Shown: piece by piece, positions 192 to 50,644 of the stretch
Position numbering within the stretch: position 1 is the first letter of the stretch
Layout of the letters: each line of letters starts with the position of its first letter
NCBI GenBank assembly: GCA_051362555.1
Contig: CM120648.1
Span: forward strand, 9,792,587-9,856,586
Reading direction: 5' to 3'
DNA: 64,000 bases
Origin: Lingula anatina
Taxonomy: Eukaryota > Animalia > Brachiopoda
Translations under genes and position numbers: made by a program
Notes under the pieces: model-generated
What the model was told of the DNA's origin: nothing
The model's database searches: none
What the model saw: the letters and a program-made list of their open reading frames with translations, nothing else

Positions 192-239
192 TTCAACGAA
201 CGCTACTCTTTGTCACACATTTCTTTATTCGGAAACACG

Positions 240-13639: not shown

Positions 13640-13847
13640 AAAAAAGTAGCCCATTAAAGGAAAAATACAAGATTGGGCATTGCTTTGGCTATGTGAATAA
13701 ATACATGGATATTTTTATATTAGTTATTGTAATTTTACATCTTTGTTTAGTTAGATAATAACGGTTTTATTATCTGTTTTTTTTGGTCCAGAATTTTGAC
13801 ATTTGAAAGCCACCTATTTTGCATTCTGAATGTTGAGGGTATTTATG

Positions 13848-21491: not shown

Positions 21492-21646
21492 AGTAGTATG
21501 GCACAGCAACTATAAATACTTACAAAACTATGTATTGTTAGTGATTTTCAGATAAATAAATAAGTAAATTAACATGTCGATGACAGAAAACCAGCGTTAT
21601 ACGCGTATACTGCGAAATGCGGGCGTTTCCTGTACACCGCCAACCT

Positions 21647-22197
21647 CAGGCCTACCCAACTACCAGACTCGGTACCTAAGGGTCCTGAATTAACCGGTAC
21701 ATCGGACCACGCTACCCGTTTTCAAGGTGTGTGTCAGATTGCATTTCGGAGTATCAGCCAGAACACCGACAGGATGAGCCCTGGCATGCTCGGCTGTCAC
21801 CTTGATTTGATAGTAAACAATTGTCGTAAAATCGCTATATGATTTTAAAACCGGGTGCATAATTTTGAAAGCCACCTAGATGAACCTTAGACTGCCACAT
21901 TAATCTAATACAATGCAAAAAAGCCCTATCAAAAGTGGTTAAAACATTCAAACCGAATGTCGTAAAGTCCCCATATATCCCCATAGAGACAATAAAATAG
22001 AGTACTCTAAAGTAAGAGTACAGTTTAAGGTCGTTCAGCCGAGCGTGGATGAGCCCGCAGTCGTGCTACAAAATTTGTTCTGGGGTATGATACTCCGAAA
22101 TGCGATCTGACACACACCTTGAAAACGGGTAGCGTGGTCCGATATACCGGTTAATTCAGGATCCTTAGGTGCCGAGTCTGGTAGTTGGGTAGGCCTG
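21647..22197. mobile_element. Second copy (inverted) of the 551-bp MITE, 5-bp TSD AACCT
   Basis: Near-identical reverse complement of 4905-5455, flanked by AACCT at 21642-21646 and 22198-22202. Confidence 0.95.
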
Positions 22198-23568: not shown

Positions 23569-26234
23569 AGTGGCTTTTTAAAAATATTACTGATTAACAA
23601 AACTGTGGGTTATTATAGAAGCAATCTTCTTCGAGCACACGTCTCGCTTATACAAGTAGCTGGTGAAGAAGATTACATCGTGGGGAAAACCATAAATGAC
23701 ATCGGTGTATACTTGTCTATTTATCTTATATTAGTTATTTTTCTACCAGCCATTTACCCTCCTATGAGAAAGGCAATGCAGACAAGTCAAATTGTTCAAG
23801 GTTTACAAGTATACCTGTAAGAAAAAAATGTTTCATAAAAAATGTTTCATTTTGTAGTGAAAGGAAAACTTAACAACATTAAAATAAATAACATAACGTA
23901 TCTTTTCTTAAAGTGTTATTTTGCTTATACTTCAAGTGCAACAGGTCAATAACAATGATTTTTCTTTTTTTTCTTTTTTAAAACTAATATTTATCAAGTA
24001 TTAATAAAGTGACAAAACAAAATAATGAATTATATGGTTATCACAATACCGTGGCTTTTTTTTTCAGGTTTACAACACAAACATAAATTTTCTAGTTGCA
24101 CGATAGGCCTACTCTCTAGTTCATGCATCATTTAATAAATGAACAACTTAGATATCCCACATTATAATTTTCCGAAATCGCTCCCTGCCATACCCTTTCA
24201 TCTGCCCATTTCCCTCCTTCTCTATCCTACCCCTCTCCTTCCTTTTAATCTCATCAAATTTTGAATTTTAAAATACGAATCTACAGGGTGACCCGAAAGA
24301 TGGATCCACTTTTGATAAAGTAGCATTTTCTAGTGAAAGGAAAACTTAACAACATTATAAATGTAAAGGCCAGACAACCTTACACCCCTTTGCTTTATGC
24401 ACATAGTACAACCCACATCCCCCACAGTCAGTAATAGGCAGTGCCACTGAATGTGAGTAGTTCATTCACACAGCAGATATCACAGAAGTAAGAAGTTAGA
24501 AAGATTCAGTGGTGTAAAAGAGGACATCAAATTGTAAGTTCAATGTTATGCTCATTGTTTATTATCAGTTGTAATACTGCATTGCCTCCATTAGGTTAAC
24601 GTTTATATTTGGAGGTGGTGTATTGCATGTGGTTGAAAACTGAAGCAAATGCACCAATTTTCCTATTTTTAATGTTGTTTCCTCTTTCCCCTTCCTTTAA
24701 ATGACAATAAGATTCAAAAAAATTTAAATTTCAAACACTACAAATACAAGCATTTACCATTCTGACGCTGCGCTGCTTTGGCAAAATAAACAAAACTACC
24801 AGTCAGAATGAAAGTTTTAAATTGAAATTGATTTAAATTCAGTTTAGAAACAATCAAATTCTGGCCCATAATTCAAGGAAATAAAACCTAAAAAAAATTG
24901 CCTTTTTAGTCTAATTTTGTGTTAAAGGCTATAGTAACGTGTTTTCTTCGCTACATGTCTAGATTGCTTCGGTTCAGTTCTATGGTCTGGGTGCCACTGC
25001 AACGCGTTGCTGGTTTGTGTCCCACCTGTAGCAATGTGCATCGGCACAATCGGGGGCAATTTTTTCCCCAAAAAACATGAAGCTAATTAAAAAAAAAAAG
25101 GAAATATCAACTCTTTTGCCGTCTGGTTACTTGGATGATGATCAAATGGTATTTTTTTCGTCAAGTGTAATGTATATATGCAGAGGGCGTTTGTGATAGC
25201 GTGAGATATAGATATAGAAAGTCTGATGTACCTGTTTCTGAAGCATTCCTTAAGATCTGGGGATTTTCTAACCCACGGAGAAAGAAGTGAAGCTGGAAAT
25301 ACGAAAAAGTACTCTCTGTTCACAGGAATCGCCTGTAGTCTCTTACAAAATTGTTGAGTCTCTTCTTTAATTTTTTATACCTTGCCAGAGACCCTGTGTT
25401 GTCATAGGGTAGCGTTAAGGGAGTTGGTGCAGTGCCCGGATGAAAATATTATTTTGAGACAACCAGGAAGGAACAGGCTATGTATGGGGATTACTGATAC
25501 TGGAAATTTACTTCCATATTAATAACATTGAACACTTTGAATGTCGAACCAGCTGTTGAAAGATGCTTTATTCCGTGTTTGACCAATGTAGAATTAATTT
25601 CGATCAAAATAAGCAATTTTGAGAGTTGGTGCTATGATATTCAATATAATATTTCTTTTATATTTTAGTCAGAATGATAAGCTGCTATTGCATTTTTGTT
25701 TTCGTAGATTCGTTTTTGTATATTACGTGATGTTACAAGGAATAAGAAACATACTCGGAGGGCCGATCGAGGTCCACTTTAAAATGGTAAACGTGGTGTA
25801 ATATTTATACTACTTACAAAATCTAAGTCCTGTCTGCATTATAATTTTATAGTTGTGAATATTCAACACACACAAACATGTATCTGATATTTCTGTGATC
25901 GTTTCCATCGTTTAATATGTAAGAACTACTGTACTTGTGGTGATCCCGTATCTCATGTTTTGCATGTAGTGGATTCTACACTTCACAGTATCCGCATATG
26001 ATGGTGTTCATTCTTCACAGCATCCGTATATATACTGTCGTTCGTTTGCTTTACAGAATCCGTATTTGACGCATCTTGTGCTTCACAGAATTATTTTATG
26101 TTGAAGCTGGCAATTTTGAAGATCGTCCAAATTCATGATATCAAACTCAAAAACAATTTTACGGATCTTTATTTTCTCAAAGGTATTGGATAAAATATAC
26201 CTTGATGATCAGATAATAAGAAAATTGCTTCAGT

Positions 26235-27994
26235 TTCCAGGAAAATTGTTATGGATTTTTTTTTGCTATTTAAAGTGCTAACGTAAGTTGTTTGTCTTTA
26301 ATCTCTACTGAACCGCAACTTGTCCGCGAATAAAGAGGAATAAAGCAAACTTATTTCCTGTTATTGCATGGGTGTTAAACATACAGTGCATTAATAAATA
26401 TGCAGGAAATCTACGCTTATATTAATCTCGAAAACAGAAGTACAGTAAAAACGGCATCTAAATGCTTCATTATTCTTATTTTTCACCTTTCACCGCAGTG
26501 AATTAATTTCCATACGCGTCATTAGGTTTACCGTAAACAATTACCCATATATGTTGAATTACGCATGGAAAACTAGGCAGCAAATCCGCATATTTGTAAA
26601 CTTGATTCACAACGTGCAAGAGAAATGTCTACTAACAGGGGGCTGTATTTTCTCTTTATTCCCTTGGCTGTATTGGCTTTATTTCCGATGATAATAATCC
26701 ACCGTTCAAAGACGACAATCAGGTATGTTTCAGACGAAATATCATGTACTTAATACAATTGGTTTAAAACTATACTCTCTGGCCACAGGGTGCGCTTGTA
26801 GTCCTTTTCTTGTTGAAAGGCTGTTTCTTGACTTCTCCTCTAAAACTGACCATATCATTTAATCAATCGGCGCATGTAATCTTTACAGAAAGGCGAAGTA
26901 CGTCTTTAAAATATGGACAGAAGAAATGACCTCCACATCTTTGAATGTTTGTCAAGCAAACCAGGAAAATCTATTTTTTTTTTATTTTTTTGTTTATTTT
27001 TTTTATTAAACATATACAAAACACAATACAGCACATTACAAAGAGGACAAACATACGAGAACATGCAATACATCACAGAATCAGAAAGCACATTTCAGTA
27101 CAAATACAAAACAATACACTACATAAGTACAGTTTTAACTTAATACAATATATACACTTTTATGGGTGCACAGTCACTGAACTATTATTTTAATATTGTA
27201 GAACGTATAATACAATATACAAAATTCTTCAGTACATTACAGAGTAGGGGAGAGCTTCCAGGAAAATTGTTATGGATTTTTTTTTGCTATTTAAAGTGCT
27301 AACGTAAGTTGTTTGTCTTTAGCCTCTACTGAACCGCAACTTGTCCGCGAATAAAGAGGAGTAAAGCAAACTTATTTCCTGTTATTGCATGGGTGTTAAA
27401 CATACAGTGCATTAATAAATATGCAGGAAATCTACGCTTATATTAATCTCGAAAACAGAAGTACAGTAAAAACGGCATCTAAATGCTTCAATATTCTTAT
27501 TTTTTACCTTTCACCGCAGTGAATTAATTTCCATACGCGTCATTAGGTTTACCGTAAACAATTACCCATATATGTTGAATTACGCATGGAAAACTAGGCA
27601 GCAAATCCGCATATTTGTAAACTTGATTCACAACGTGCAAGAGAAATGTCTACTAACAGGGGGCTGTATTTTCTCTTTATTCCCTTGGCTGTATTGGCTT
27701 TATTTCCGATGATAATAATCCACCGTTCAAAGACGACAATCAGGTATGTTTCAGACGAAATATCATGTACTTAATACAATTGGTTTAAAACTATACTCTC
27801 TGGCCACAGGGTGCGCTTGTAGTCCTTTTCTTGTTGAAAGGCTGTTTCTTGACTTCTCCTCTAAAACTGACCATATCATTTAATCAATCGGCGCATGTAA
27901 TCTTTACAGAAAGGCGAAGTACGTCTTTAAAATATGGACAGAAGAAATGACCTCCACATCTTTGAATGTTTGTCAAGCAAACCAGGAAAATCTA
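26235..27994 (+). repeat. ~740-bp direct duplication (26235-26973 and 27256-27994) containing GT7 coding exons 1-2
   Basis: Near-identical copies offset by 1021 bp and separated by a poly(A)-tailed insert. Confidence 0.95.
26974..27255 (-). mobile_element. 5'-truncated poly(A)-tailed retro-insertion (LINE 3' UTR-like)
   Basis: The minus strand is TG-rich non-coding sequence ending ..gtttAATAAAaaaaataaacaaaaaaataaaaaaaaaa, and sits precisely between the two duplicated blocks. Confidence 0.7.
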
Positions 27995-30900
27995 GGTAAG
28001 GACGTGGGGCAAGACCGAGGTGAGGCTCCACATATACGGATGTTCTCACAGATTGTGCATGTGGCAGTGAATATTAAAATGAAAGTTGTATAACTTAGGG
28101 GAAAACATGCAGTGGTGTGTGTTAAACATTTTCTATGGAAGAGCGTATGTCAAGCAAACCAATAAAATTCGGGTAAAAATATAGATAGGATATGTTTTGT
28201 ACCTGAACAAAATTGCAACAGAATTTGTTTTTCACCATGTATTGCCTTGAAGTCTTGGGAGCATCATACTAAAAGAATCTCTGCATGGAAAAAACGAAAA
28301 ATCCAAAATGGCTGTCAATATCTATAGAAATATACTATAGCATTAATGATCTTGCATCACATCACCGCCGTTTATTTTTCATTCAATATTAAGAGCCAAT
28401 TTCGTCAAAAGCATTCTCTCTAGTGGTTGATGGACATTTTGGCTTTATCATTTGGTATAAAATAGCTCTAAAAATAAAGGAAACCCTATCGACAACATAT
28501 GTCTGTAGTGCACAACTAAGCTGAAATAGTTGCTGACCCAATATTATAGGTGAACTTCGAGTAAGAAAATACTTTGGAATGGACATGCTGGTCATTGTGG
28601 GAAAGCCCTGCCTGTTTTAAACATGAAATTAAATTGATTGGAGACCACCAGAGTTTGCAATATGTTTTAACTTCAACAGTCTGTCGAATAAGTAAAATAT
28701 CCAATATCTTAAGGAAACGCATTTTGAAAACGTGTTATGGCTGTTATATCTATCTATTGGACTTATTGGCCATCTTGTGAAACCATATAGACCTATAGCT
28801 TCAAACGTTCTTTACAGCTCCAATTTTGACATCAAAATCTGCAAAATATCTGTAATTTGTAATGATCTCTACATAATGCATGAAAAGTGATATACTCCGT
28901 AGTTATATTGAGCCGATTTATACATAATTATTAACAGTAAACGAATGACAAATGTCAAGTGCAAATTTGGGATGAAATAGTGGAACGAGGCGAGTTCATA
29001 TGCTAGAGTATACATGTATATTTCTCTGGTAATTGTTCCCAAGCAGGAATTCTTCGGGGCTTTTCTTCCTTTTAGCATTTTGATTAGGGGAATTCAAGGA
29101 AATACATGGTGAAACAATAGATTCTTTTGTAACTACAGGGTTATCACTTAATATGGAATATTATTTTTTGGCGAGTAAATTTTCTATTAAATATTTGATA
29201 TCTCTCTAACTATTTTAAATCTAAAACTGAGGTGTCACTCCATGTGTAGCCAGGTGTGTTACCTAATTACCACACAACTCTCGAATCAATTGATGCATGC
29301 AGTTGCATGTTCTGTGGTCAGAAATGTAAGGGGTGGTCATTTCGGCAATTTATGCCCTTGTATAAAAACGCATGGGTTTGGTCAATCTTTGGAGTGTGTT
29401 TAGAGAAGCAACAAGGGATCGCTCTGAAACTTGACAGGTACCTTAGTGAAAATATGGTTCGACATCTAAGCAACGCAGCTTACTATGGGATTCTTGCTCT
29501 CAGAGAAAATGGCCAGAAACAGATAGCCATTGCCAGGTAATTCAACATTTATCAGGAACCGTTTGTAAAGTCTTCCAACGAAATGCTGCGACAGGGGCAC
29601 CTACTCCAGTACCTCGACCAGGGTGTCCGCGTATCACACCAAGAAGACAGGATCGCCATCTCCTTAAAAGACGCAGTGCTGGTCTTACAAAGACAACCAG
29701 TGTCCTCAGAAAAGAGAGGCAAAATGTCATTCAAACGCCCGTTTCAAGGTCCCTCGTGAACAAGAAATTACTGCAAGCCGGTTATTTTGCACGAAGACCA
29801 GTAGGGAAACCACTGTTAACAGCTGGTCATATACAGCGACGTCTGCAGTGGGCTGGGGACCACGTGCGTTTGCAGCCAAAACACTGGAATCACGCCATTT
29901 TCAGTGATGAGGCCAGATATGAATTTTTTGGGATTGATGGTCGAATCCGTGTCTACAGACGTGTTCGAGGGACATAAAACGATGATTGTGTACTGCCTAG
30001 GGTGCAAGCAGGGGATGGTAACGTCTCTGTTTGGGGAGCATTTGATGTCGGTGCCCAGAACCAGTTGGTTTCTCTAGGAGGCAACCTCAACCAGGATTCC
30101 TACAGAGACATTCTACAGCAAACAATGCTGCGATTGGTAAGAGTAATCTTCAGGAACAAATGTGTGTACCAAGACGACTACGCAACCCCACATTGAGCCC
30201 GTAGAATCACTGTTTTTCTTCAAAACCAATGGGTTCAGCAACTGCCCTGGCCTGCAAACTCTCCAGATTTGAACCCAATTGAAAAACTTTGGGCAAAAGT
30301 AACTCACAGAATTAATAGCTATGGTCATCGTCCGGTAAATAGTGATGAACTGCGACAGGCAAATATCACTGCGTGGAATGATATCCCCATCCAAACTCTA
30401 AAAAAATGTGTCACAGGGTATGCCATGTAGGATGAGGGCGCTGCAAGCGGCTGCTGGAGGTCATACCCGCAATTACTGTCTTTTCATGATTTACTGTAGT
30501 GAGTTCTTTGATTGTGTAACATATCACTGTCCGGAGGCTATCATTTTCTTTATTATCTTAGCTTAAAGTTAATACTGACATCAAACTGTTGCTATGGTTT
30601 TCTGGAAGTGTTATTTCTGTTGAATGGCATCTTATGGCTGCTTGATATTATACCAAAATATCTCAACAGAAGACTGGGCGTTTTTTTCACTCAGTGACAT
30701 ACTTTTTTTGATGAATCTAGCCAAAAAAATGTAAATAGCACTCAAAAATAACAATGATAAAAATATTCCATATTAAATAGCAACCCTGTATGTCCAGAGT
30801 AAACCCTATTTTGCTTTATGGATGCAAAGTTTGAATACAGCTACAAGCATAAAATCTATACATATGGATACCTGTGTGATAATGGAAATGAAAAGGATAG

Positions 30901-33900
30901 GGAAACAGGCACTACTGTGTGTTAAACGTTTCAATTAAGAATCAAGCGGGTATTTATTCCTATGTTAGCATATTGAAGACGTTAATTCATACAGCACAAA
31001 GTCATTTGAGGAAAACAAAGTATTGTAAAAGAAACAGTGCGACCACTTGAAGACATTGCGATAGTCAGATCGTGGTGTTGTGAGGATCGCTAAAACATAC
31101 TTATGATGACGAACCTTTGTTACTCGATGCTGCTAGAAAATAAGACACACTTTAACACACATCTGCAGCCAAATGGTCGTCAAAAAGGTTGAGTTTAGAA
31201 ATACAACAAATATATTTTGTCCATTTCCTCTTTTATCCTGATGATGTTACATATCGAGTGTGTTCTTTTTCTAATTTAGAAAATGTATACAAAGTACGTT
31301 TGGAACCGTTGCCAATGTCAAACAGAACGGAGCTGTTTAAAGAGGTTGCCACTGGAGGCCGATGGGCACCTACGTCATGCAAGCCTAGGGATCACGTGGC
31401 GATCATCATCCCTTACCGTGATAGACAAAAACACTTGGAAATTCTCCTCCTAAATCTACACCCTTTTCTACAAAGCCAAAAGTGCCTCTACCAGATATTC
31501 GTCATTGAACAAGTAGACTGCTTAACGACTGTTGCTTTTTAGCAACCTTCATCTCCCTCTCTTTCTGTCTCTCTCCCTCTCTCTCTCTCCCTCTGTCTCA
31601 GTTAATAGTATCAGATCCTCGGGTGCCACAAAGATAGGTAGTATCAAGGGTTCGTACACCATCTTTATTCAGTTTCCTGCAAGACGGCAACATTCAACTT
31701 TTCTCTATCAAAACTTCTTGAACTTTACCCTGCGTCACTTCATTTCAATTCATCTCCATTTGTTTTCTGAACACATCGGGTGCTGTTTTAAATCTTAATC
31801 AGCGTATTCATATTTCTGCAGGCTCACCCAGAACCTTTTAACACCGGATATGCCAAAAATATTGGATTTGTCGAGGCCAGTGCCACGTTTAATTTCACCT
31901 GCTACATATTTCACGACGTGGATAAAATCCCTATGAACAATTCACTGCTCTATAGATGTCCGCCTGGCAGAGTTCTTCATTTTGCCTCCGCTGAGGATAG
32001 GTTTAAGTACAGGTCTGTGATAATAATCCGCTACACAGCCTCTCTCTCGCTCATGTTCTGTCTCTCTCTCTTCGATTTCAGAATCTCGATTCTCTCTGCC
32101 AATGAAAATTATCACTGAAAATGCGACAATAAGGCGATCTCGGCTGTTTAAAAGATCTTTAAAAGACTGTTTTATCTATTTTGTCAATTTCAAATCCAAG
32201 TATTTTAAGAAATAAACAAATAAGTAAAAAGATAAAAATTATAAGTAAATGAATAAATATAAAGCTTTGCATGTTGTGACTTCAGGCTCCCCTATAAAAA
32301 CTACATCGGAGGAGTTATTGGATTCACTCCTGACACATTCAAAAAGATAAATGGGTTTGCTAATAACTACATAGGATGGGGTGGTGATGACGACGACATT
32401 TTTCTAAGGTAAGTGGGATGCTTATGGACGCCGGTACTGTAGGTGATTTATCCCTTCATCATTAAGGTAATTTTTAAGCAAATATAACCATTTTCGGTAA
32501 AATCATTAACAGTTGATCGCACTGGTTCTTCTGAATATTATTTTGGGATGGCATACACTCACAAGTTACCAGTAGATACAAATGCAACTAAAATTAGTCC
32601 TCATTACCGTTCAGTTAGAGCGCATAAATAACAAGCTGATCCGCAGACTAAATATGACCGACTGTTGCTGTTGGCTGTTTTGAATGCACTGTTATATCAG
32701 AGTGAAATAAGCAGGGGTGGACCCAGGATTAATTGAAGGGCGTGGGGTTGGGGGCCCGCTTAAGGACCCCATAAAAATGGTATTTTAGAGGGCAAAAAGT
32801 GCCATTTGGAATGGTTTAGAGCTATGATTCAGCTAGTCAAAATTATAATTTCAAGACGGGGCCATTGGTGTGATTTTATTCAGAATTCGAAGGGGGGTGG
32901 GGAGATCAGGACCCCCCTGACCCCCCCTCTAAATCCGCCATTGATAAGCCCCTGGTAAGGGCGTCAGATGGTTGTTTTGGATAAGGGGTAGAGTTTAAAG
33001 CCTCTCCCGCCAAAATCACAACGCAATCATAATTTGAATGTTGGTGTACGATTTTAAATTAAACCAGGGGTTGGGGGCCCGCTTAAGGACCCCATAAAAA
33101 TGGTATTTTAGAGGGCAAAAAGTGCCATTTGGAATGGTTTAGAGCTATGATTCAGCTAGTCAAAATTATAATTTCAAGACGGGGCCATTGGTGTGATTTT
33201 ATTCAGAATTCGAAGTGGGGTGGGGAGGTCAGGACCCCCCTGACCCCCCCTCTAAATCCGCCATTGATAAGCCCCTGGTAAGGGCGTCAGATGGTTGTTT
33301 TGGATAAGGGGTAGAGTTTAAAGCCTCTCCCGCCAAAATCACAACGCAATCATAATTTGAATGTTGGTGTACGATTTTAAATTAAACCAGATCTGTCTTG
33401 TTTTAGGAGTGTATATCAAAAGGTTCCTATTGAGCATGCCAACAATCGTTTGGGCGTGTACAGAGTTTTAAACCATCCGCGGTTGCCTGGTGACGTATAC
33501 ATGGAAAAGTGAGTTATTATAATACAGTGTATATTATAAAGTACATGTATCTTGTGAAAAAGAAAAAGAAGTTTTTTTGCACCCCTAGTAATATTCTAGG
33601 CTGATACAAGGGCTTGCTTAATATTACTTTTAAGTTAAAAATGGCATAATGATTTAAAAATGACAAAAAAAAAAAAAAACAAAAAAAACAAAAACAAATT
33701 TTAAATCCATCTTACTTGAACCAAAACAAGTAGCCTACATGTGCTTTTTAAATATGCTAGTACATGTTGTATCCAGTACTTATTCGACCTGCTAATCACT
33801 AACTATTTTAATAGTGTTTTTTTCAAGAGTTTTTTAAGTAAAGTGATTCGAATTCCCGGTGACTTATAATCATATTTGCCTTCTTGAAATTCTGCATAAG

Positions 33901-38100: not shown

Positions 38101-38960
38101 TTCGGCTTGCTCTCACAAATATGTAACAAAATCAAAAACCTGTTACATTTTTAGTGAGGTAATTATGAATCTCAATGAAGATGAATGAATTTGGTGTTTT
38201 TTGTCAAAGCCACAATTTTGAAGGCGGGGAGCTTGCAAAAATTTGTTCTGATCGGTTGCAAACCCGGTAGTGGAAAGACTTGTCAGTTGAGATTTTTAGC
38301 CTCAATATTTGCAGTGCAGCACCACAAATTTACATATATTCAAAATAATATGCAGAAACATGCTTTACCACAATAAAGGACTACGTATAACAATTTGATG
38401 ACTTTTTGATTTGCGTAAATTGGCAAAATAATTTATGATTTAGTGAGGTAATCATGAATCTCAATGAAGCAGAGAGAGAGAGAGAGAGGGAGAGAGAGAG
38501 AGAGAGAGAGAGATTGCAAATAGGGCCTAGCGTTGTCGGGTCTTGACAAAATTGTTGCAGTTCGAACATAAGTCATTGGGCTATATAATACACCCCTTCC
38601 ACCACATTCTTTGTAATACCCGCACTGTGCTGACCATTTTACGGTGGAAGGGCGGGGGGAAAGAGGATTCAAATCGAGCAACTTTTCATAACAATAACGG
38701 AAGGGGGGGGGGGGGGGGTTAGGTTCTCTCTTTACAATCAGATTTTTTTCTAGAGGAGAGAAAGAAAATTGGTGAGGATTTCAATCAAGAATACTAGTAT
38801 CTTGGGGACTAAAACAATGTTTGTTAAACCCGTCTGAACGCGACCTTGTAAACATAACATTACACTACCATTTTTATTTCCTATTTCATATAAATTGGGT
38901 GTAGTCAAGCGACTACGATATGAAGTCGGACGTGGAGGAGGGGGGGGGGGGGGGCTAAAA

Positions 38961-39037
38961 CGGGTGTGATAGGAATGGCAGTCCTGCTTGGAACCCCGGA
39001 CCTACATTCCTGGGACTACCATTCCTGTCACACCGGT
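38961..39037. repeat. Small hairpin/MITE in the promoter region of the repeat-lectin gene
   Basis: cgggtgtgataggaatggcagtcc ... ggactaccattcctgtcacaccgg inverted repeat. Confidence 0.7.
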
Positions 39038-39161
39038 ATCAAAACCCCAGACTGAACGGGACCTTGTATACATTACACTCCCCGGTTACATTCCAGTCCG
39101 TTGCCAACTACTGACAATGCTCGCTGCCTAGGGAAATACCATCTCATACATCATTAATGCA

Positions 39162-39197
39162 TATATAATATCTGCAATTGTGTACGTCGACACAGTC
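39162..39197 (+). promoter_or_regulatory. TATA box plus Inr-like CAGT of the repeat-lectin gene
   Basis: TATATAA at 39162, cacagtc ~30 bp downstream, ATG at 39231. Confidence 0.5.
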
Positions 39198-39230
39198 TCT
39201 TTGCTGGATTCCGATCAGAGGAGAGAGAGA

Positions 39231-40867
39231 ATGGATCCGAGAAGAGCTGTAGCGGTGACTTTTGCGCTCTTTCTTGCGCTCTCTTTGCTAGTCGCAGGCG
39301 CTGAGAGCACAACGAAATCGAGCAAAAAGTCATCGGCTAAGAGTCCTCCTAGTCTGCCTGGTAAGTTTGATAACTTTTCTTGCGTTGAATTTTTTCACTT
39401 TTTTTTTTTTGAAAATTTCAAATTTGATCGTACGAGGGGGGTGGGGTGGGGTGGCGGAATATTTTTTGCTGCATTTTACGTTTGAAATATTAAAAAAATT
39501 GATCAGGTAGACAGTCAGATAGACAGTCAAAATAATTTAATAGGATTATTGGTCTTTCCCAGTTTCTTTGGTCATCATTGCGATGTATTTACTTTAAGTA
39601 TGTTAAAAGTACAAAAACGATTTCAGACAAGTTAGTTTCTGCTCACTAACACACACACAAACAAACACACACACACACACACTTCATATATTTTCTTGTT
39701 TTATCTTTGCCACACTCAGATATTAAAAGCAAAACGTCGCCGAGGGAACAGTCTTCGGATTTAAGTCCTCCTTGTCCACAAGGTTGGTTTTGTAATTTTT
39801 TCTTTCATATCTCTGTGCTTGTTTCAAATTGTTTCAAGTATGGTCCTTTATATCATAGGCTTTTATATCAGTTGATTAGCTTTCCCCATTTTCCAACCGA
39901 TTTACATTTTTGTGCTAATTGTAAAAATTGAAACTTAAATAATAAAAGATAAAAAGTCGGCCAAATTGATTGAATAAGATTTTTGGTCATTTTCTGTTCT
40001 TCTGCTCTGTTCAGCGCTATTTTTACTATGTGCATAAAAGTAGAAAACGATTTTAGGTTGATCTCTGGTCGCATACGTGAAAAATGTCTTGCTTTTCCTT
40101 CAGATGAGATAGGAGTCGACGTTGAGGGACAGACGAAATCGAGCAAAAAGTCCTCAGCTAAAAGTCGACCTAGTCTATCAGGTAGGTTCGATAGTTTCTC
40201 TTTTTCACTCAATTCGCTAGCTTCAAAAAGAATAAAAACGATTTCTGATAATTTCTGGTCACGTAAATAATTTTTTTGTTTGCTCCCATTGTTAGGCGCA
40301 GACGTTGCGAGCAAAACGAAATCGAGCAAAAAGTCCTCTGCAAAAAGCCCTCCTAGTCAACCAGGTAGGTATATTTTTTTACTACTTTCGTTGTACGTTT
40401 TTTTGCTCTTTTTACAACCTTGAAAAGTTGAAGGTGAGAAAGAAGACGGATCGCATTAATACCAGTAATATATGTCACTCCCTTTAACGCTGTATTTTAC
40501 TCTTTTTTGTACTAATAAAGGTTAAATTTTATTAAAAGGCAAACATGTACAGTTCATGTAGAAAGTAGGTCATATAATTCAAATAGGAGTTTTGGTTATC
40601 CTCAGTTTTTTTTGCTCATCCTTGCCTTTACTGTGTAAAACTAGAAACTATTTTAGGTAAGTCTCTGGTCATGTACGTAAATATAAAAAAATTCTTGTTC
40701 TCCCTTCGGCTGAGCTAGCAGCAGATGTTGAGGGACAGACGAAATCGAGCAAGAAGTCTTCAGCTAAAAGTCATCCCAGCTTATCAGGTGTGTTTGATAA
40801 GTTTTTTGGTGTATTTTTCCCTTTTTTTGCTAGTTTTTAATTTTAAGTAAGCGTGTGTGTTAGTGTA

Positions 40868-40902
<35 letters not shown>

Positions 40903-43900
40903 GGACGCACGAAAGGCCTTCATGTCAGTAAGATACCCTCTACCAGGGTGGCAGATATTATAGCCACATATTCCACCAGCCAGTTAGAAGATTGACCATA
41001 TTTATCGAGACATACATATGAATATCTAGTGAAAAATCAATCAGTGGACTTGATAGAGGGTAGCAGTTAGATAGTTTCCTTCCCTTTTGGCTGAATGTTA
41101 CACTCATTTTTGCAAATTAGGAATATTTTAAATCTGAAAAAGAGCAAGTAAGTGTCAGTTATTTTGATTGAATAGATTTTTTAGTTATTTTCATTTTTCT
41201 TTGCATATCCCTTCGCTGGATTTACTATGTGTTACAGAAGTATAAAAACGATTTCTGATCATCTTCTGGTCATGTAAATAAATGTTTATTTTTGCTCTCT
41301 TTGCAAGGCGCAGATGTTGCGAGCAAAACTAAATCGAGCAAAAAGTCCTCCGCAAAAAGCTCTCCTAGTCAACCAGGTAGGTTTGACATTTTCACTTCTT
41401 TCGTTGCAGGTTTTTGCTTTCTTTGCAAGCTTAAAGTGTTGAAGTTGGGGGGAAAAAAGACAAAGAGCTTTCATATCGGTTAGATATCTCACTACCTTTT
41501 ACACTTCATTTTACACTTTTTTGTGCTAATAATGGTTTAATTGTATTAAAAGGCAAAAAATATACAGTTAAAGTAGAAAGTAGGCAATGTAATTCATATA
41601 TGATTTTTAGTTATTCTCTGTTTAGTTATTTCTGCTCCTGCCTGGGCAGTCTTTACTATGTGCGTAAAAAGGGTAAAATCGATTTTAAATGTGGCCACTT
41701 GGATAAATACTCATTTTTATTGTGCTTTCCTTGCTAGTCGCCAACGTAAAGAGCCAAACAAAATCGAGCAAAAAATCCTCAGCTAAAAGCCATCCTAGTC
41801 TGCCAGGTACGTTTGATATTTTTTCTTTCGTTGTACTTTTTCAGTCTCTTTGAAAGCTTTAAAATTTGATCGTAAGGGGGACGGGCAGGCGGGCGAATGG
41901 TCTTTAAATCAGTTAAATATTTCCATCCGTTTTTCGCTGCATTTTAGGTTTCATTTGGTGCGTAAATGTTGAAATGGAAAAAAGTCAAAACACTCACATT
42001 GATTAAACAGGATTATTGGTCATTTTCATTTTCTGTGGTCATCTTTGCAATGGCATTACTGAGTGTGTAAAAAGTAGAAAGGGGGTTTCGGACAAGCTTC
42101 TGCTCACTGACATAAATAAAAATTAATTTATCCTGTTGTCTCTTTGCCACAATCAGATATTAAAAGCAAAACGTCGCCGAGCGAAAAGTCTTCGGATATA
42201 AGTCCTCCTTGCCCACAAGGTAGGTGTTATAATTTTTTCATTTGTATCTCTGTGCTTTTTTTCTATTTTCGGGAATTCGCACCATAGGCCTTCATACATG
42301 TATCAGTTGAATAGCTTCCCCCCTTTTCCAACCAATTTACACTTCTGTACTAATTGTAAAAATTGAAACTTAAATAATAAATAAAATGTCAGCCGAATTG
42401 CTTGAATGAGATTTTTGGCCATTTTCTGTTCTTCTGCTCTTCTCAGCGCCATTTTAACTAAGTGCATGAAGGTGGAAAACGATTTTAAATAAAGCTCTGG
42501 TCGCATAAGTGAAAAATTTCTTGTTCTTCCTTCAGATGAGCTAGGAGCCGACGTTGAGGGACAGACGAAATCGAGCAAAAAGTCCTCAGCTAAAAGTCGA
42601 CCTAGTCTATCAGGTAGGTTCGATAATTTGTCTTTTTCACTCATTTCGCTAGCTACAAAATAAATAAATAAATAAATAAATAAAAAATAAAACGAATAAA
42701 TAAAAAATAAAACGAATAAAATAAACAAATAAAATAATAAGAAGAAGATAAATAAATATTAAATATATAAAAACGATTTTTGATTATCTTCTGGTCACAT
42801 AAATATTTTTTGTTTACTTACTTTGCTAGGCGCAGATGTTGCGAGCAAAACGAAATCGAGCAAAAAGTCCTCCGCAAAAAGCCCTCCTAGTCAACCAGGT
42901 AGGTTTGACAATTTCACTTCTTTCGTTGCATGTTTTTTGCTCTCTTTGCAAGCTTAAAGTGTTGAAGTTGGGGGAAAAAACAGACAAAGAGCTTTCATAT
43001 CGGTTAGATATCTCACTACCTTTTACACTTCATTTTACACTTATTTGTGCTAATAATGGTTTAATTATATTAATAGGCAAAAATATACAGTTAAGGTAGA
43101 AAGTAGGTCATATAATTCAACTAGGATTTTTGGTTTTTCTCCGTTTTTCTGCTCCTGCCTGCGCTGTCTTTACGATGTGCGTAAAAAGCATAAATTCAAT
43201 TTCAAATGTGGCCACGTAGATAAAAACTCATTTTTATTGTGCTTTCTTTGCTAGTCGCAGGCGTAAAGAGCCAAACAAAATCGAGCAAAAAGTCTTCAGT
43301 TAAAAGTCATCCTAGTCTGTCAGGTACGTTTGATAATTTTTTCTTTCGTTGTACTTTTTCACCCTCTTTAGAAAGCTTTAAAATTTGAGCGTAAGGGGCG
43401 GGCGAATGGTCTTCAAATCAGTTAAATATTTTCATCCGTTTTTCGCTGCATTTTACCTTTTTGTCTTAATTTGTCTTTCGATGTATTTTCACTCATTTCA
43501 CTAGCTTCAAATTTTGAGTGAGCGTGTGTGTGTGTGTGTGTGGGGGGGGGGGGGGGGCGCACGAGAGGCCTTCATGTCAGTTAGATAGTTTCCTCCCCTT
43601 TTGGCAGAATTTTAGCTATTTTGTTCAAATTAAAAATATTAAGTTTAAAAAAACAACTACAATGTCAGTTGTTTTGATAAAATAGTATTTCTTTTAGTTA
43701 TTCTTAGTTTTCCTTGCATCTCCCTGCGTCACAAGTTGACTTACCTTTGCGTACAGGAGGTATAAACACAATTTCTGATAATCTTCTGGTAACGTAAATA
43801 ATTTCTTTTGTTTACTTACTTTGCTAGGCGCAGATGTTGCGAGCAAAACGAAATCGAGCAAAAAGTCCTCCGCAAAAAGCCCTCCTAGTCAACCAGGTAG

Positions 43901-44780
43901 GTTTGACATTTTCACTTCTTTCGTTGCATGTTTTTGCTCTCTTTGCAAGCTTCAAGTGTTGGAGATGGGAAAACAGACGAAAAGTTTTCATATCGGTTAG
44001 ATATCTCAGTCCTTTTTACACTGCATTTTACGCTTTTTTTGTGCTTATAATGGTTTTTAATTAAAATTGTATTAAAAGGCAAAAATATACAGTTAAGGTA
44101 GGAAGTAGGCAATATAATTCAAATAGGATTTATGGTTATTCTCCGTTTTTCTGCTCCTGCCTGCGCAGTCTTTACGATGTGCGTAAAAAGCATAACATCG
44201 ATTTCAAATGTGGCTCATAGATAAATACTCATTTCTATTGTGCTTTCCTTGCTAGTCGCCAACGTAAGGAGCCAAACGAAATCGAGCAAAAAGTCTTCAG
44301 CTAAAAGTCATCCTAGTCTGCCAGGTACGTTTGATAATTTTACTTTCGATGTATTTTTCACTCATATCGCCAGCTTCAATTTCTGAGGGGGAGGGTGTGG
44401 TGACGGGATCGCACGCCAGGTCTTCATTACTGAAGATACCTTCCTTTTATGCTGCGCTTTAATTTTTTTTTTTTTTTTGTAAAAAACTCAGGTAGACAGT
44501 CATTCGTATTGTTTAGATAGGATTTTGGTCATACTAAGATTTTTCTGCTCATCCCTGCGCTGTGTGTAAAAATATTAAAACGATTTCGATAAAGCTTGTG
44601 GTCACGTAGATAAAAATTCATCTTTTCTTGTGCTCTCTTTTCTAGTCGCAGATATAAGTAGAAAAACGAAATCAAGCAAAAAGTCCTCAGCTGGAAGTCA
44701 TCCTAGTCTAAAAGGTAAGTTGGATTTTCTTTTTTTGTATCCTTCATATCGCTCATTTAGCTAGCTTAAAATATTGTGTT

Positions 44781-44836
<56 letters not shown>

Positions 44837-47036
44837 GAGGGGGGGGGGTGGCACGATGTCCCTTTATATCAGTAAAAAAGCCCCCACCCCCCTCATCTTC
44901 ACTGTAGTTTCTTGTGTGTTTATTAAAAACATGGAAGGGTTAACAAAAAGAGCAAGTAGAAGGGCATTTGATTAAATTGGATTGTGGTCATGCTCAATTT
45001 TTCTTCTCATCCCTGTACTGGCTTCACTATAAGTGTAAAATAGAAAACGATTTCAGATAAGCTTGTGGGTAAGTAGTTAAATCTCCATTTTTTATGGTCT
45101 CTTTGTCAGCTGCAGATATAGGAAGCAAAACGAAATCGAGCAGAAAGTCCTCAGTAAAAAGTCTGCCAGGTAGGTTTGGTAATTTTTTATTACGTACGTT
45201 GTTATTTTCGCTCTCTTCGCAAGCTTCAAGTGCTAAAGGTGGGAAATTTAACGAATGACCGTCACATCGTTTAGATTTTTGAGGATTCATGTTGATTCAC
45301 CGTATAGATCTTGATAAAAATAGAAGTATATATATTGATGCACCTTGAAAGATATTCCCCGAAGAAGGCCCAGGGACCGAAAGCTCGGATTGTATTTAAC
45401 AACTATAATGTAGATCTTTCAAGGTGCATCAATATATATACTTCTATCGGTTAGATTTATTCCTTTCTTCGCTACATTTTACGTTTCATTGTGTGCTCAT
45501 AATTGTGAACGTTGAAAGTTAAAAAATGAAAATCTGGTAAGCAGCCGTATTGATTTTATTTTATTTTTATTATGAGTTTAAAAAACAAAAAATGATTACA
45601 GAGAAGCTTTTGTCCACGTAGATAAATATATCTTTGTTGTGCTCTCTTTGACTAGTCGCAGATAAAAAGAGTAAAACGAAATCGAGCAAAAAGTCCTCGG
45701 CGCAAGGTCCTCCTGATCTACCAGGCAAGTTTCATAGCTTTTCCATTTTTTTAAATTTTCTTTGGGAAAGGAAACCGTTCAACTGGCCTTCATATCAGTT
45801 AAATTTTTGTTGCTGTATTTTTACATACTTAAGGCTAATTCTAAATATTGAAAGTTGAAAAAAATAATGATAAGGCAGAAAGTCAGTCGCGTGGGATCGG
45901 CTTAATCACCCCTTAGCTGTTCGAGGAGGCGTGTCAGACAATTAAGCCGACCCCACTGAGTGCACTTAGCGAGAATCCCTCGCAGAGTTGAACCGACCGA
46001 GTTGGTGTGATGTGCAGGGGGGGGGGGGGGGGGGGAGGGGGGCGAACGAACTGCCCTTTTTAACGGGAAAGGGTCCACACTGGGTAAAATTCGATCTGGG
46101 TACACGACGGTTTTTCACAGTAAAAAGACCACTTTTTTCGGAAAGAAACCCCTCTCAAATTGCTGGCTATGGGCCTGTCACATGGCAGGTTCTTCAATTT
46201 CATCGTAATCTTTCCAGCCTCCACAAAGAAAGGACGATTGGACTGCGACTGTCACGGAGATTACAGGACGGAATGTTGCGTAGGTCACCCGGTTAAAGAC
46301 ATCACACTGGTCACTCAGCGTCCGGAGAAAGTGACCGATAGCGTGTGCGTCCCAGGGTTGATGTACGGCTTGGCAGAGGACAGGATCTATGTAAAAGGAT
46401 GCAAGGGGCAGTTCCAAGTCAGTTTCCAGTGTCAGAAAGTCAAAACACGTAAGTACAAACACCCCCTCCAAGAATAAAACAGTACTTTTTCTCTCTCTCT
46501 CAGCAGCTGGTATTTTCATTTAGTTGTGCATTAAAGATAAATTTGAAATCAATTTTTGCATCAAAAGCCGACCAAATTCTACCATACAAGTATAGTTTCA
46601 TATAGTATAACTTGGAGATATGGCAAAATACATCGTTTCATATTACCCCCCAAAAAATTATGGCAGATTAGTGATTTTTCCTTTTACCTCTGGTCATGAC
46701 GACTTAATCTGAGTCGTATAAGAAATTACTAGAAGTGGTTTACATGCGTAATTGGAAAACCATGCTCACCGTTTTCGTATCTAATTTTTTTCGTTCTTAG
46801 GTTCCGTAAAATGTAAAAGCATCAACTGGTCATTCAACGAATGTGAAGTTGAAGGTATGATTATCGACATCTTTGCCAAGAAAGAATTAAACGCTAAGAA
46901 AGGGAAGAAGGAGCCCTGTTTCTCAGCTTGCGTGCAGGGCAGAAGTTTCGGTTACCACGGCAACAAAATCTGGGTCGCCAACAACTGCTCTGCGGTATTC
47001 CGGGTGACGTATTGTGCGGACCAAAAATCATGCTGA
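39231..47036 (+). CDS. Secreted Ser/Lys-rich repeat protein with two C-terminal DUF3011/ADEL-lectin-like domains (18 exons: 39231-39360, 39720-39782, 40104-40181, 40296-40364, 40719-40787, 41308-41376, 41738-41806, 42157-42219, 42536-42613, 42830-42898, 43255-43323, 43828-43896, 44256-44324, 44646-44714, 45110-45169, 45656-45724, 46218-46448, 46801-47036)
   Basis: Signal peptide MDPRRAVAVTFALFLALSLLVAGAES. Fifteen internal exons of 60-78 nt, each with polypyrimidine+AG and a GT (one GC) donor, all phase 1-1. Terminal exons encode C.C.....ECC..ITLVTQ..C..G..YG....IYVKGCKGQF and CKS....ECE..C.QGRSFGY....IWVANNCSAVF*. AATAAA at 47221. Confidence 0.88.
45321..45446 (+). mobile_element. Penelope-like remnant: 33-bp perfect inverted repeat around a degenerate hammerhead motif
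   Basis: tagaagtatatatattgatgcaccttgaaagat (45321-45353) and atctttcaaggtgcatcaatatatatacttcta (45414-45446). The spacer contains cCGAAGAaggcccagggaccGAAAgctcgg. Confidence 0.55.
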
Positions 47037-47881
47037 AAAAAAATTCCCATTCAAAAAACTTAAGTTTTTGTCCTCAAATCCGTGGAGAATTTCATAATTA
47101 GAAAAGTCGCATGTACATGTAGTAAATGTGAAATTGACAAGAAAAAGTCAAGTGAATTCCTTTATTATTCTTTAATGATTAATAACTTTTTCAAGCAGAT
47201 TTCACGTCGATCGTTTAGGAAATAAACATGACCTGGTGTTAAAGCCTGAATTTGTAGTTTGCGAAATGGCCAAAAGATGTTCATGTGAAAGTAAAACAAT
47301 TTCCCTTAAAACAATGTTAGTGATTTCAATGTCATTTAATGATTTCAACGTAGATTGTGTCGTTTGCAATATCCTGCGTTGAATGTCTGCAACTTTCTGT
47401 TTTTGCCTGTGAAATATTTTTTCAGCAGTTAATTAAGCAGGGATGAAACTGCCATTTGGTGAAAAAAGTTTGAAAATATGGCTTGGGGTCCTGGAAACCC
47501 TGAGCATCGATCTCAGAAATGATACTTTTGGCTCCCATAGAAAAATCTCATTAGTTTACTGGTCAACAGATTGACACCGCCTCCCTGCTGATCTTGTTAG
47601 CCTTAGAACTCGTGGCTTATAAAATAATATCCTTCTCCTCAGGTTCTGTTGGACCAACTTTGACCCCAAAAGAGAGCTTTGGAGCTTTATTCAGTTCATA
47701 ACATGTCACGTCAAAACTGAAAATATTTGACTAAGATGCTGGAATTTTGATGAATGCCTCGCCAGTATCATTGGACCAACTAACTTCAAATTTGGATGAT
47801 TTTTCAAACTGCCTTTTAAATCCGCAGTCCACATGATGGTCAACTGGCAATTTTAATTGGGTTTTGAACCAGTTTGCTGCC

Positions 47882-50644
47882 TCATTCTCCATGGGTATAA
47901 GCAAACATCCCTTTCAGTAACCTACAAGCTGGCAAGTTGTTGGCCTCCGTTGGAATCCTGTACGGACCGTGATCGCCCATATACACATAACTGTTCAATT
48001 TAATTAAGGAAAACAATTTTAAATATAATATAATTTGAGTATAATTATGTTTGAATACAGTGATATGGGATTTATTCTTTTTGTTGGATACAAACTATTT
48101 AAAATACGGTTACTTGACTTGTGCACGCTCAATATACAAATAAATCAAGTACGAGTGGAACGTATAATTATGTAATTCATAAAGTGACCCAAAAAAAAAA
48201 AGAAAAAAAAAAAAAGAAAAAAAAAACTTTTCAATATAGATCACATTGGGCATGAAAGAAAAAGGATTGAAAATTGCCATGAAATTAGTAGATAAACTTA
48301 TATACCGAGACTTTGTGGCCATACCTATATTAAATGCATCACATCCTAAGCAACACACACACAAGTTTACATGGATGCACATAAAGCCTGTATCCAACAA
48401 ACATGTATTACATAATATATAAAATTGCATCCACCACATTTCAATCACTTAATTTTAAATAAATACTTATTTTCAACCACTTAAAACAAGCAAAAAAAAA
48501 TCTAATGAGAAGGATACGGCAACCGCAGCACCCATATTCCTCCCTGTGGCAGAACAATGGCGCCATCATGACTTGGCATAAACACAGGGCACGGCAGAGG
48601 CGCTGGCTGAATTCTGGGATTGATAGAGATGTTGGTAGGGCCTTCAGGTGTGGCGATGTATATTCTCATCAACTGTGCCATCAGACCTTTGGAACTCCTG
48701 ATACAAAGGATTGCATATGAATTATTGACAAGACTCAAAAATGGTGAAATAGGTTCTACATTGCTGATGAAAAAAAATTAAGTAAATATTGTTTCTAAAG
48801 TGCTCACATTAAGTATCTTTGAGGAAGGGTTCAAAATCTTCATAGGCATAAAACATAATTATATTTTCTTTAAAAAAAATTTTGATCAAACTGCTGTTTT
48901 ATTTTAATTTTCAATTTTTTTCAGAAAAATGATTTTTGAATGTAGGATCTTTTCGAAAACATGTCACAGCTGAAGTATGCACTAATCAAAGTCACAATTC
49001 TAAGACACTTTATATGAGCGAAATCAATCAATAATTAGGTGTTAAATGCTGTGTTAAAAAAAGAACCTGAAAAAAAAATTCAAAAGTTCTGAAAACAGAG
49101 TTACCCTTGTGAGCAAGACCATTTGTGCTTTGAAAAATCTCTCAGTAAGTTGTATGTTTGATATATTTGAACAAGAACTATATCACAACTGACATTAAAA
49201 TGTTCACTTCCAAAACAACAATTCCTTACCTACAGTGACATGGAAAGTACAGTGGCATGTCATTACTCAGAAGCTTGTTGGCATTGTCCTAAAATTTTAG
49301 AATAAAAAAACACTTAGTAATACTCTTTTAAACTGAAAGGATTCATCATCCTGGAGTGAGTTCTCTCTACTTGTATCACAATGGATGCCAAGAACAAATG
49401 ACCCAGGTGTATAATATGATATTGTGCATCACATGATATTGTGTATCACATGATATTGTGTATCACATGATATTGTGTATCATTGAATATTATGTATCAC
49501 ATGATACTGTGCATCACATGCTTCACTTCACCTGGGTATTTTCCACCATACAATAATAATAAAAATTCACAAAACAAAAGATATGGTTATTTTCTTCTAA
49601 AATCTACGGGAAGACAGACAGTCTAAGTTACTGATCAATCATTTATAGCTAAATTTTCCAAGGGAATTGGTAAGAAAAAATAATAAAAACAAACCCCCAA
49701 AATCCAAGTGGGGGGATAATTTTTGATAAAAATTCAACTGGCAGGAAAATCCCAGTTATAAGGACACCCTTCAAATATGATGTTATAATCCTTACCTTTG
49801 GTGGCCCACTCCCAGGCACTTTGATGATCTTCTCAGGACCACTGCAGAAAAACCTGTGACCTCTAGGACACTCGTACTCCAGTCCGAGGTAAACCTTCAT
49901 GTTGATCTCTGCAGGTTCTGAAGGAGTGATAGAAAATATGCCCAATTTTTAATTATGTATCAGTTGCCAGAGACCTGTGGCATCTGGGGCACCCGTCTTC
50001 AGGTTTTTATAAATGACAAAAATAAAATCAAACACATAGGATTAATCCGCTGAGAAACTGATTTAAAGAACTGTTCAAATCAGTCAGACAGACTGTTATT
50101 TAACATCACTAAATGACCAAATAACCTGGTTTAACCGGGTCTATGACGGTTAATTTCCAAATAAATCAATCTGAAAAAGACATCAATCAGTGCTTACTCT
50201 ACTGTTTTCACACGAACTCACCTGGTATGCTCTTCTGCCCTCGTTTATTCTTCCCCTTCTTCCCCCCTGGTGCCTCGTTAATGGCGGGCCACTTTTCCCT
50301 GTCCCCCTTCACCAGGATGTCCCAGGGTAGAAGGTAGTTGCTGCCATGCATGAATCCTGGCTGGTCAATACCTGGAGTGGAAATGACCAAGTGACTCTCT
50401 CTCAAACACACATACACAGACACAAATGTAGTCAATTTGTTATTGCAAAATTCTTTTCCCTTCTTTCCATGCTTTCTCTCTCTCTCTCTCTCCCCCCTCT
50501 CTCTATCTCACTCACACACGCATTCATAAAAACACACATGCAGTCATTACTTAGTAATGGCAAAATTCATCTCCCTTCTTTCCATACTTTCAGTCTCTCT
50601 GTGTCTCTCTCTCTCTCTCTCTCTCTCTGCACCGAAATTCTCTT

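Follow-up and report, generated by a model that had tools for sequence, protein, structure and literature searches.

A single gene of 18 exons lies on the forward strand at 39231-47036 of the stretch of Lingula anatina DNA analysed here (64,000 nucleotides of contig CM120648.1; in the following, "the window" is this whole stretch, and all positions refer to it). It codes for a predicted signal peptide, a Ser/Lys/Pro-rich repeat region of 363 amino acids and, behind this tail, two DUF3011 (AKL/ADEL-type lectin) domains. Fifteen of the exons (E2-E16, spanning 39720-45724) are short cassettes which each carry one copy of the repeat, and a sixteenth copy sits in exon 1. The gene is transcribed and its product is predicted to be secreted. 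The reading which we favour, and which we hold to be fairly probable as a whole, is that of a transcribed secreted-lectin gene which is spliced mostly in order, whose cassette array would derive from a duplication of exon 1 and intron 1 sequence, and whose product would serve to tether polyanions. The feature is real; it is of a known type of architecture, with an uncommon and testable twist in its origin.

Gene layout and cassette exons

Taking the first usable acceptor in each case, the cassettes E2 to E16 measure 63, 78, 69, 69, 69, 69, 63, 78, 69, 69, 69, 69, 69, 60 and 69 nt, which is the upper size end of what is called a micro-exon. All 15 lengths are divisible by three, and all 15 donors follow the first base (G) of a codon, so that the cassettes are of phase 1-1. 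Joined together, exons 1-18 give 1629 nt and 542 amino acids (pI 10.0) in one frame with no internal stop. A preliminary description of this DNA, made from the letters alone, had stated that each repeat is its own symmetric exon, that neither a stop nor a frameshift interrupts any of them, that many have in-frame tandem acceptors and that any subset could be skipped in frame. These statements agree with our analysis: at least two in-frame YAG or AAG acceptors are present in 11 of the 15 cassettes, and all subsets are in frame, which on paper amounts to 28,416 distinct proteins.

Each of the 16 donors agrees with the consensus in 7-9 of its 9 positions. The donor of E16 is of the GC type (CAG/GCAAGT, the slash marking the exon border) and, judging from its sequence, would be used in splicing. 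A GAG that is out of frame and presumably not used lies 4 nt upstream of the TAG acceptor in E5. The spacing of the exons is 183-606 nt and the introns are 8-31% diverged; the window holds one copy of the gene. Where a run of at least three consecutive homologous exons of the same phase was looked for, 15 consecutive 1-1 exons were found, in which both exons and introns can be aligned. A search of 38500-48000 for Rfam families found none.

The repeat region consists of 30% Ser, 19% Lys and 10% Pro, has a net charge of +51, contains 14 K-x-x-K motifs and, judged by composition, is a low-complexity tail of the disordered type. The core repeat motif occurs 14 times in the window (in exon 1 and 13 cassettes), against 0.02 copies expected by chance; E2 and E8 are of a diverged type and stand outside this count. 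The net charge of the single cassettes ranges from 0 to +5, with 10 of 15 at +4 or +5, and the 15 cassettes encode 13 distinct peptides. The parts of the gene, all on the forward (+) strand, are as follows.

39231..39360, +, coding part of exon 1: ATG, predicted signal peptide (approximately residues 1-24), the first copy of the repeat and a donor in phase 1
39267..39297, +, codons of the signal peptide that share homology with the repeat acceptors (polypyrimidine tract and two tandem AGs), from a scored comparison with controls
39720..39782, +, E2: 63 nt, type A, one Cys, net charge 0; E2>E3 joint in RNA
40104..40181, +, E3: 78 nt, type B; in-frame TAG at 40113 with no use so far; joints E2>E3 and E3>E4
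40296..40364, +, E4: 69 nt, type C; entered by the E3>E4 joint at the upstream TAG
40719..40787, +, E5: 69 nt, type B; TAG-CAG-CAG acceptors, the upstream CAG of E3 and E9 lost; donor seen in RNA (E5>E6), acceptor placed from the letters
41308..41376, +, E6: 69 nt, type C, AAG acceptor; joints E5>E6 and E6>E7
41738..41806, +, E7: 69 nt, type D, downstream AG lost; joint E6>E7
42157..42219, +, E8: 63 nt, type A, with 4 differences relative to E2; without a listed joint
42536..42613, +, E9: 78 nt, type B, sharing its final 63 nt unchanged with E3; without a listed joint
42830..42898, +, E10: 69 nt, type C, the same sequence as E12; target of a backward joint from E13
43255..43323, +, E11: 69 nt, type D; thinly covered by reads, without a listed joint
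43828..43896, +, E12: 69 nt, type C; thinly covered by reads
44256..44324, +, E13: 69 nt, type D; donor in the backward joint
44646..44714, +, E14: 69 nt; no joint listed
45110..45169, +, E15: 60 nt, with a 9-nt in-frame deletion; no joint listed
45656..45724, +, E16: 69 nt, GC donor; no joint listed
46218..46448, +, E17: DUF3011/ADEL-type domain 1, phase 1-1
46801..47036, +, E18: DUF3011/ADEL-type domain 2 and stop codon

Origin of the array

Whole introns are homologous among the units and are arranged in nested blocks. Written by type, the first twelve cassettes run A B C B C D A B C D C D; the last three are unique exons. In a tree of the units the groups A, B and C are well supported and D less so. 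The connection to exon 1 is found at the acceptors. In exon 1, the 25 nt that precede the in-register AG are codons of the hydrophobic core of the signal peptide, and they align to the cassette acceptors; with the acceptor of E14, 20 of 22 nt are identical. None of 400 random controls and none of 171 pyrimidine-rich YAG sites taken elsewhere in the window scored as high as this match.

The tandem acceptors, which lie 6 nt apart, correspond to the pair of AGs that exon 1 has in its Leu-Val-Ala-Gly codons. The first AG is gone in E2 and E8 and the second in E7 and E13, thus each exon evidently needs only one of them; in E3 and E9 the second AG was lost and one further upstream was gained. Read in this way, the tandem AGs are two sites inherited from one putative ancestral unit. 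The symmetry of the cassettes needs no extra explanation either, as a tandem copy of an in-frame exon together with its intron is necessarily symmetric.

The simplest course of events, and a likely one, is a head-to-tail duplication of a segment with one end some 25 nt within the signal-peptide codons of exon 1 and the other in intron 1. Each copy would have found its polypyrimidine tract in the pyrimidine-rich Phe/Leu/Ser codons, and a latent acceptor, activated by the duplication, in the AGs of the Leu-Val-Ala-Gly codons close to the cleavage site. Since both AGs share phase 1 with the donor of exon 1, the new exon would have been symmetric from the outset. Unequal crossing-over would then have multiplied single units as well as blocks. 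Under this scheme the length of the tail would differ mainly between alleles, and exon skipping would be minor at most. Passages in the literature describe related processes: tandem duplication can activate latent splice sites (the 'imprecise' route in PMC3443670), phase 1 proto-splice sites cluster at signal-peptide cleavage sites (as given in PMC1626468, citing Tordai and Patthy), and symmetric exons with internal tandem duplication often yield disordered proteins (according to part of PMC3632108). The reuse of signal-peptide codons as the acceptor of a repeat-exon array was not found in the open-licence papers searched.

Two results speak against the proposed direction. The position of exon 1 in the unit tree is unresolved, and neither nhmmer (E<=10) nor scored segments found homology of exon 1 to the introns more than 25 nt upstream of the AG. 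As the homology ends there and the tree leaves exon 1 unplaced, the direction of origin is unproven. A longer homology between exon 1 and the introns, plausible by eye, was discarded since the same two methods did not support it.

The events could also have run in reverse: the array came first, and a deletion fused the start codon to the polypyrimidine tract of one unit, which is now the core of the signal peptide, with splicing again mostly in order. The end of the homology at about 25 nt upstream of the AG would suit such a fusion. So would the finding that in almost all units the tract, if read in frame, encodes hydrophobic residues, and intron 16 matches only the first ~160 nt of the other introns. 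However, a repeat element in intron 16 may have erased the remaining homology there. Exon 1 differs from the unit consensus at 5 of 31 nt, the 11 units in leave-one-out comparison at 4-12; it thus equals the closest unit and is nearer to the consensus than 10 of the 11, which leans mildly towards exon 1 as the source. In addition, the Ala-Gly codons that hold the AGs adjoin the cleavage site, a place at which one expects proto-splice sites, and the reverse order requires an extra step, the loss of an older signal exon. We consider it somewhat unlikely and prefer exon 1 as the origin of the array. A further candidate, that each unit is an alternative first exon with its own signal peptide, was rejected: 13 of the 15 units have no in-frame upstream Met, and E3 and E15 have no proper signal.

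Selection on the cassettes

Between paralogous cassettes (E15 left out; the pairs are not independent) dN/dS was 0.23 over the 8 closest pairs, with 13.5 synonymous differences per 107 sites and 11.5 non-synonymous differences per 373 sites, and 0.24-0.32 over all pairs. Fifteen exon-pair alignments contained a single gap, which is in frame, whereas the corresponding 15 intron pairs contained 4-25 gaps each. At the gap rates of the introns approximately 27 exon gaps would be expected over 11 pairs, a figure computed from pairs that are not independent and from diverged introns, which inflate gap counts. The cassettes are under selection, as had been proposed in the preliminary description, and this selection is purifying. 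It acts on the protein and is expected whether or not exons are skipped; hence it says nothing on skipping.

RNA evidence on splicing

Eight of nine raw-read runs from the same species (X6 left out) were aligned, with 6-30% of each run (about 6% of X1-X3), and exon joints were listed from three reads upwards. The cassettes are covered at approximately 1-fold depth, mainly by the runs X1-X3 and on the expected strand; over exon 1, X3 showed low depth on this strand. Five exon joints were listed, all from X1-X3. Four of them connect neighbours, with 17 reads, all on the expected strand: E2>E3 with 4 reads (X2), E3>E4 with 5 (X3), and E5>E6 and E6>E7 with 4 each (X1). The fifth is a backward joint from E13 into E10, which equals E12, with one read in X1 and three reads with two starts in X2. 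There is no forward skip among the five listed joints, at the shallow depth of these eight runs.

The joints into the tandem-acceptor exons E3, E4, E6 and E10/12 (17 reads) used the upstream AG every time, so the downstream acceptor was used in none of four listed joints into such exons. At E6 the acceptor used in RNA (41306-41308) is an AAG, despite an in-frame CAG 6 nt downstream; this fits scanning for the first AG, or an allele with TAG. The remaining listed joints, 40963>41019 and two on the opposite strand (45372 and 45923), fall within intronic repeats and were rejected as splices. Intron 15 also contains, at 45320-45447, a 128-nt MITE-like element with perfect 34-nt terminal inverted repeats, related copies of which are transcribed elsewhere.

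The central proposal of the preliminary description was a potential combinatorial splicing system that could tune charge and length. Spelled out, cassettes would be skipped in many combinations and the tandem acceptors would add variants of two or three residues, so that tissues or individuals differ in how long and how charged the tail is. Of this, the cassettes themselves stood up as real, transcribed, spliced and skippable in frame; skipping is unsupported so far, and the symmetry and the tandem AGs on which the proposal was built are explained by descent. The frame and the spread of cassette charges would allow it, and the last cassette, with its GC donor, would suit it as well. There is a parallel in tropoelastin, where all splice sites are phase 1:1 and at least 13 human isoforms are described (in part of bioRxiv 10.1101/2024.12.03.626628). 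In a simple Poisson model, with the depth fitted to the 4 listed cells of 51, the probability that no skip would be listed is 0.95, 0.45 and 0.08 at 80%, 50% and 30% inclusion. The RNA is thus compatible with 50-80% inclusion, the lower value of which corresponds to 50% skipping, whereas 30% inclusion is unlikely. The absence of forward skips and of downstream acceptor use among the listed joints, and the strong donors, stand against the proposal; moreover, with cassettes this nearly identical, skipping would change little but length. We regard combinatorial skipping as unlikely, though the resemblance in build to SmPoMuc and to the alternatively spliced tropoelastin keeps it plausible.

Several points weigh against our own reading of mostly in-order splicing. 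The threshold of three reads hides rarer skips. Thirteen of the 17 neighbour joints, including E1>E2, E16>E17 and E17>E18, were not listed, so that the full-length mRNA is a predicted one. The near-identical paralogous copies blur the mapping of reads: 15 of 120 forward skip junctions are at most 2 mismatches from a neighbour junction over 80 nt, and E3>E4 and E5>E6 are each one mismatch from skip junctions. In human genes, 1-1 exons make up 21% of alternative and 11% of constitutive exons, about twice as many (Table 3 of PMC3632108).

The backward joint, too, does not fit splicing in order. A bolder reading of it is exon repetition, as proposed for the schistosome SmPoMuc mucins, or back-splicing (circular RNA): repeats would be gained or reordered after transcription, of which E13>E10/E12 would be the trace. 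The joint occurs in two samples, and the SmPoMuc mucins have the same tandem exon-plus-intron unit, microsatellites and transcripts that exceed the genomic repeats (in part of PMC2576457). Yet over 40+40 nt the joint is only 2 mismatches away from the ordinary E11>E12 junction, and the reads carry many allelic differences; the heterozygosity of Lingula is given as 1.6% in a passage of PMC4595640. An allele in which E11 resembles E13 suffices, as does a single additional C-D block; this is the simplest explanation, and repetition of exons in RNA seems very improbable to us. The most far-reaching combination, in which the signal-peptide codons provided a ready-made acceptor, a copy of the end of the secretory first exon together with its donor gave a self-propagating phase 1-1 cassette in a single step, and the polycationic 15-cassette tail is in addition varied in length in RNA by both skipping and exon repetition, is quite doubtful. 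Taken together, the RNA confirms exon borders and leans towards splicing in order, and it is compatible with moderate skipping.

Lectin domains, signal peptide and likely function

Against the Pfam family PF11218 (DUF3011), E18 reaches E = 2.5e-4 and 21.5 bits, which is under the cut-off of 25 bits, and E17 alone has no Pfam match. At E<=0.001 E18 has 537 relatives, which include DUF3011 proteins of bacteria and, near the top, a 'lectin ADEL-like' protein of Aplysia (P0011). Relatives pass PF11218 with 80-143 bits, and the first Atlas match of E18 is a DUF3011 cluster (0.90). With a profile made from 135 domains cut from the E18 matches, E17 scored E = 8e-11 and E18 1e-16; as the profile was seeded with E18, only the score of E17 is independent. 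E17 and E18 have no BLASTP match to each other and are linked only through this profile, which found no further copies in the window. The two exons encode tandem DUF3011-type domains with conserved Cys pairs and a W-V-x-x-x-C motif.

An AlphaFold model of E18 (34-row alignment) is all-beta with a pLDDT of 89. Among solved structures there was no sequence match, and no Foldseek match at E<=0.001 for either of two models. In a VIA comparison with 48,161 solved chains the highest Z of the E18 model was 3.9, which is no clear match; H-type lectins (3.5-3.6) appeared among unrelated beta folds. The signal peptide is predicted by hydropathy, from a basic start and a hydrophobic core. Exon 1 led to no full-length relatives in the Atlas, and neither E18 nor exon 1 did so among longer proteins, the latter being weak evidence. 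The 32-nt repeat pattern has no exact match in metagenome contigs, and the repeat peptide was not found in the open-licence literature. No comparable tail occurs in the 150 listed relatives; four of them pass a window test of 40% K+S, with windows that are not this repeat.

The Aplysia lectin AKL is a DUF3011 protein with three repeats which binds galacturonic acid, and the paper that describes it notes similar hypothetical proteins in Lingula (both from part of PMC5484111). An ADEL-like protein is on the shell-matrix list of Nautilus, as the only DUF3011/ADEL entry of that supplement (PMC13425148); a term search of this supplement gave no match to the Lingula protein. In the supplement of PMC4595640 a term search found neither the repeat peptide nor DUF3011.

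By analogy, the two DUF3011 domains are predicted to be sugar-binding; like AKL with galacturonic acid, these lectin heads would bind acidic sugars. The disordered tail with its charge of +51 would bind polyanions. The protein would tether or cross-link acidic glycans of the extracellular matrix, of mucus or of an egg coat, or it would coat microbes. The single Cys of E2 and of E8 could link chains.

Comparison with known systems

With the egg lectins AKL and ADEL of Aplysia the gene shares a signal peptide and tandem Cys-containing beta domains of ~60-70 residues. It has two domains instead of the three of AKL, and it adds the basic repeat tail of 363 amino acids in front of them.

Symmetric-exon disordered proteins (Schad et al. 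2013, in part of PMC3632108) and tropoelastin likewise are secreted or disordered, with one repeat per exon in phase 1-1, and Lys-rich with K-x-x-K motifs; no sequence relation to them is shown. In contrast to these, the introns of the Lingula gene can still be aligned, and the acceptor traces to the gene's own signal-peptide codons.

The SmPoMuc mucins of Schistosoma mansoni resemble the gene in having a signal peptide, a unique C-terminal region after tandem repeats, microsatellites and a short exon that is repeated in tandem together with its flanking introns, up to 20 units in SmPoMuc. They differ in their 27-bp exon, in units of ~1 kb that are >93% identical, in forming a multigene family and in being acidic mucins (all from sections of PMC2576457), whereas the Lingula gene has exons of 60-78 nt, units spaced 183-606 nt apart with introns 8-31% diverged, one copy in the window, and a basic protein with lectin domains.

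The preliminary description had drawn an analogy to the schistosome micro-exon genes (MEGs). A secreted product and a run of short symmetric exons are indeed common to both. However, the exons of MEGs measure 6-81 bp, the majority 15 bp, and account for the larger part of the coding sequence; their isoforms arise by demonstrated alternative splicing, some MEGs have dN/dS >1, and they are described as restricted to platyhelminths (from parts of bioRxiv 10.1101/2023.06.21.545858 and PMC4350168). The smallest Lingula exon has 60 nt and two domain exons have 231-236 nt; the cassettes are near-identical copies of one unit, with dN/dS ~0.25 between paralogous exons, so their evolution is purifying and not accelerated; the five joints listed at low depth include no forward skip; and the host is a brachiopod, not a flatworm. 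The analogy does not carry, and the cassette gene is not a MEG.

Imprecise intron gain (as outlined in PMC3443670) and proto-splice sites (PMC1626468, in part) share with our scheme that a duplication activates a latent site in coding sequence and adds coding nucleotides, and the proto-splice sites also the AG/G at Ala-Gly codons by the cleavage site. Unlike in imprecise intron gain, the Lingula segment would include an existing donor, so that each round adds an exon and an intron, and the polypyrimidine tract would come from signal-peptide codons.

Significance

Repeat tails that arise from copied symmetric exons are common, and phase 1 introns are commonly in excess around the cleavage sites of signal peptides. 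A link in sequence between both patterns is retained in this gene, where the codons for the signal peptide in exon 1 match the acceptors of the array. If the direction which we propose is true, it would be a readable example of a secreted protein that gained phase 1 cassettes without importing anything, and similar cases would be predicted in other secreted repeat proteins. Relative to the 150 listed relatives, the combination of a polycationic tail with DUF3011 is a new architecture, in a family of lectins for whose predicted fold no solved structure is a clear match. More striking still would be combinatorial splicing, which the present data do not show.

Neighbouring features in the window

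Downstream of the gene, at 47032-47600, there are opposite-strand reads, with a depth of ~40 in X1 and X2 at 47326-47600 and reaching to ~300 nt from the stop codon. They probably mark where a convergent gene has its 3' end; exons of SMG8 are found at ~49800. A neighbouring SMG8 exon is 100% identical to SMG8 of Lingula anatina over 80% of a 51-aa query, the next matches being at 61-76%, which identifies the host as the brachiopod Lingula.

At 192-3941 and 9652-13823 (+) two tandem Cys-rich paralogues are found which are ~90% identical. Within one long exon, which matches no Pfam family, they carry an acidic Thr/Glu repeat of 15 residues (45-nt unit) in 7 and 13 copies; a later exon encodes a hydrophobic C-terminus. 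Two single-exon glycosyltransferase-61-like open reading frames lie on the reverse strand at 18319-16781 and 6531-5263. The first matches PF04577; the second loses similarity at ~5456, at an inserted element of 552 nt, which is found again in inverted orientation at 21646-22197. A beta-1,4-galactosyltransferase-like gene (PF13733) has exons at 31156-32115 (+), and a remnant of a Tc1/Tc3-like transposase (PF01498) lies at 29450-29974 (+). Finally, 26232-27994 and 32744-33390 contain near-perfect direct duplications (742 nt at 99% and 323 nt at 99%), which are either recent duplications or assembly artefacts.

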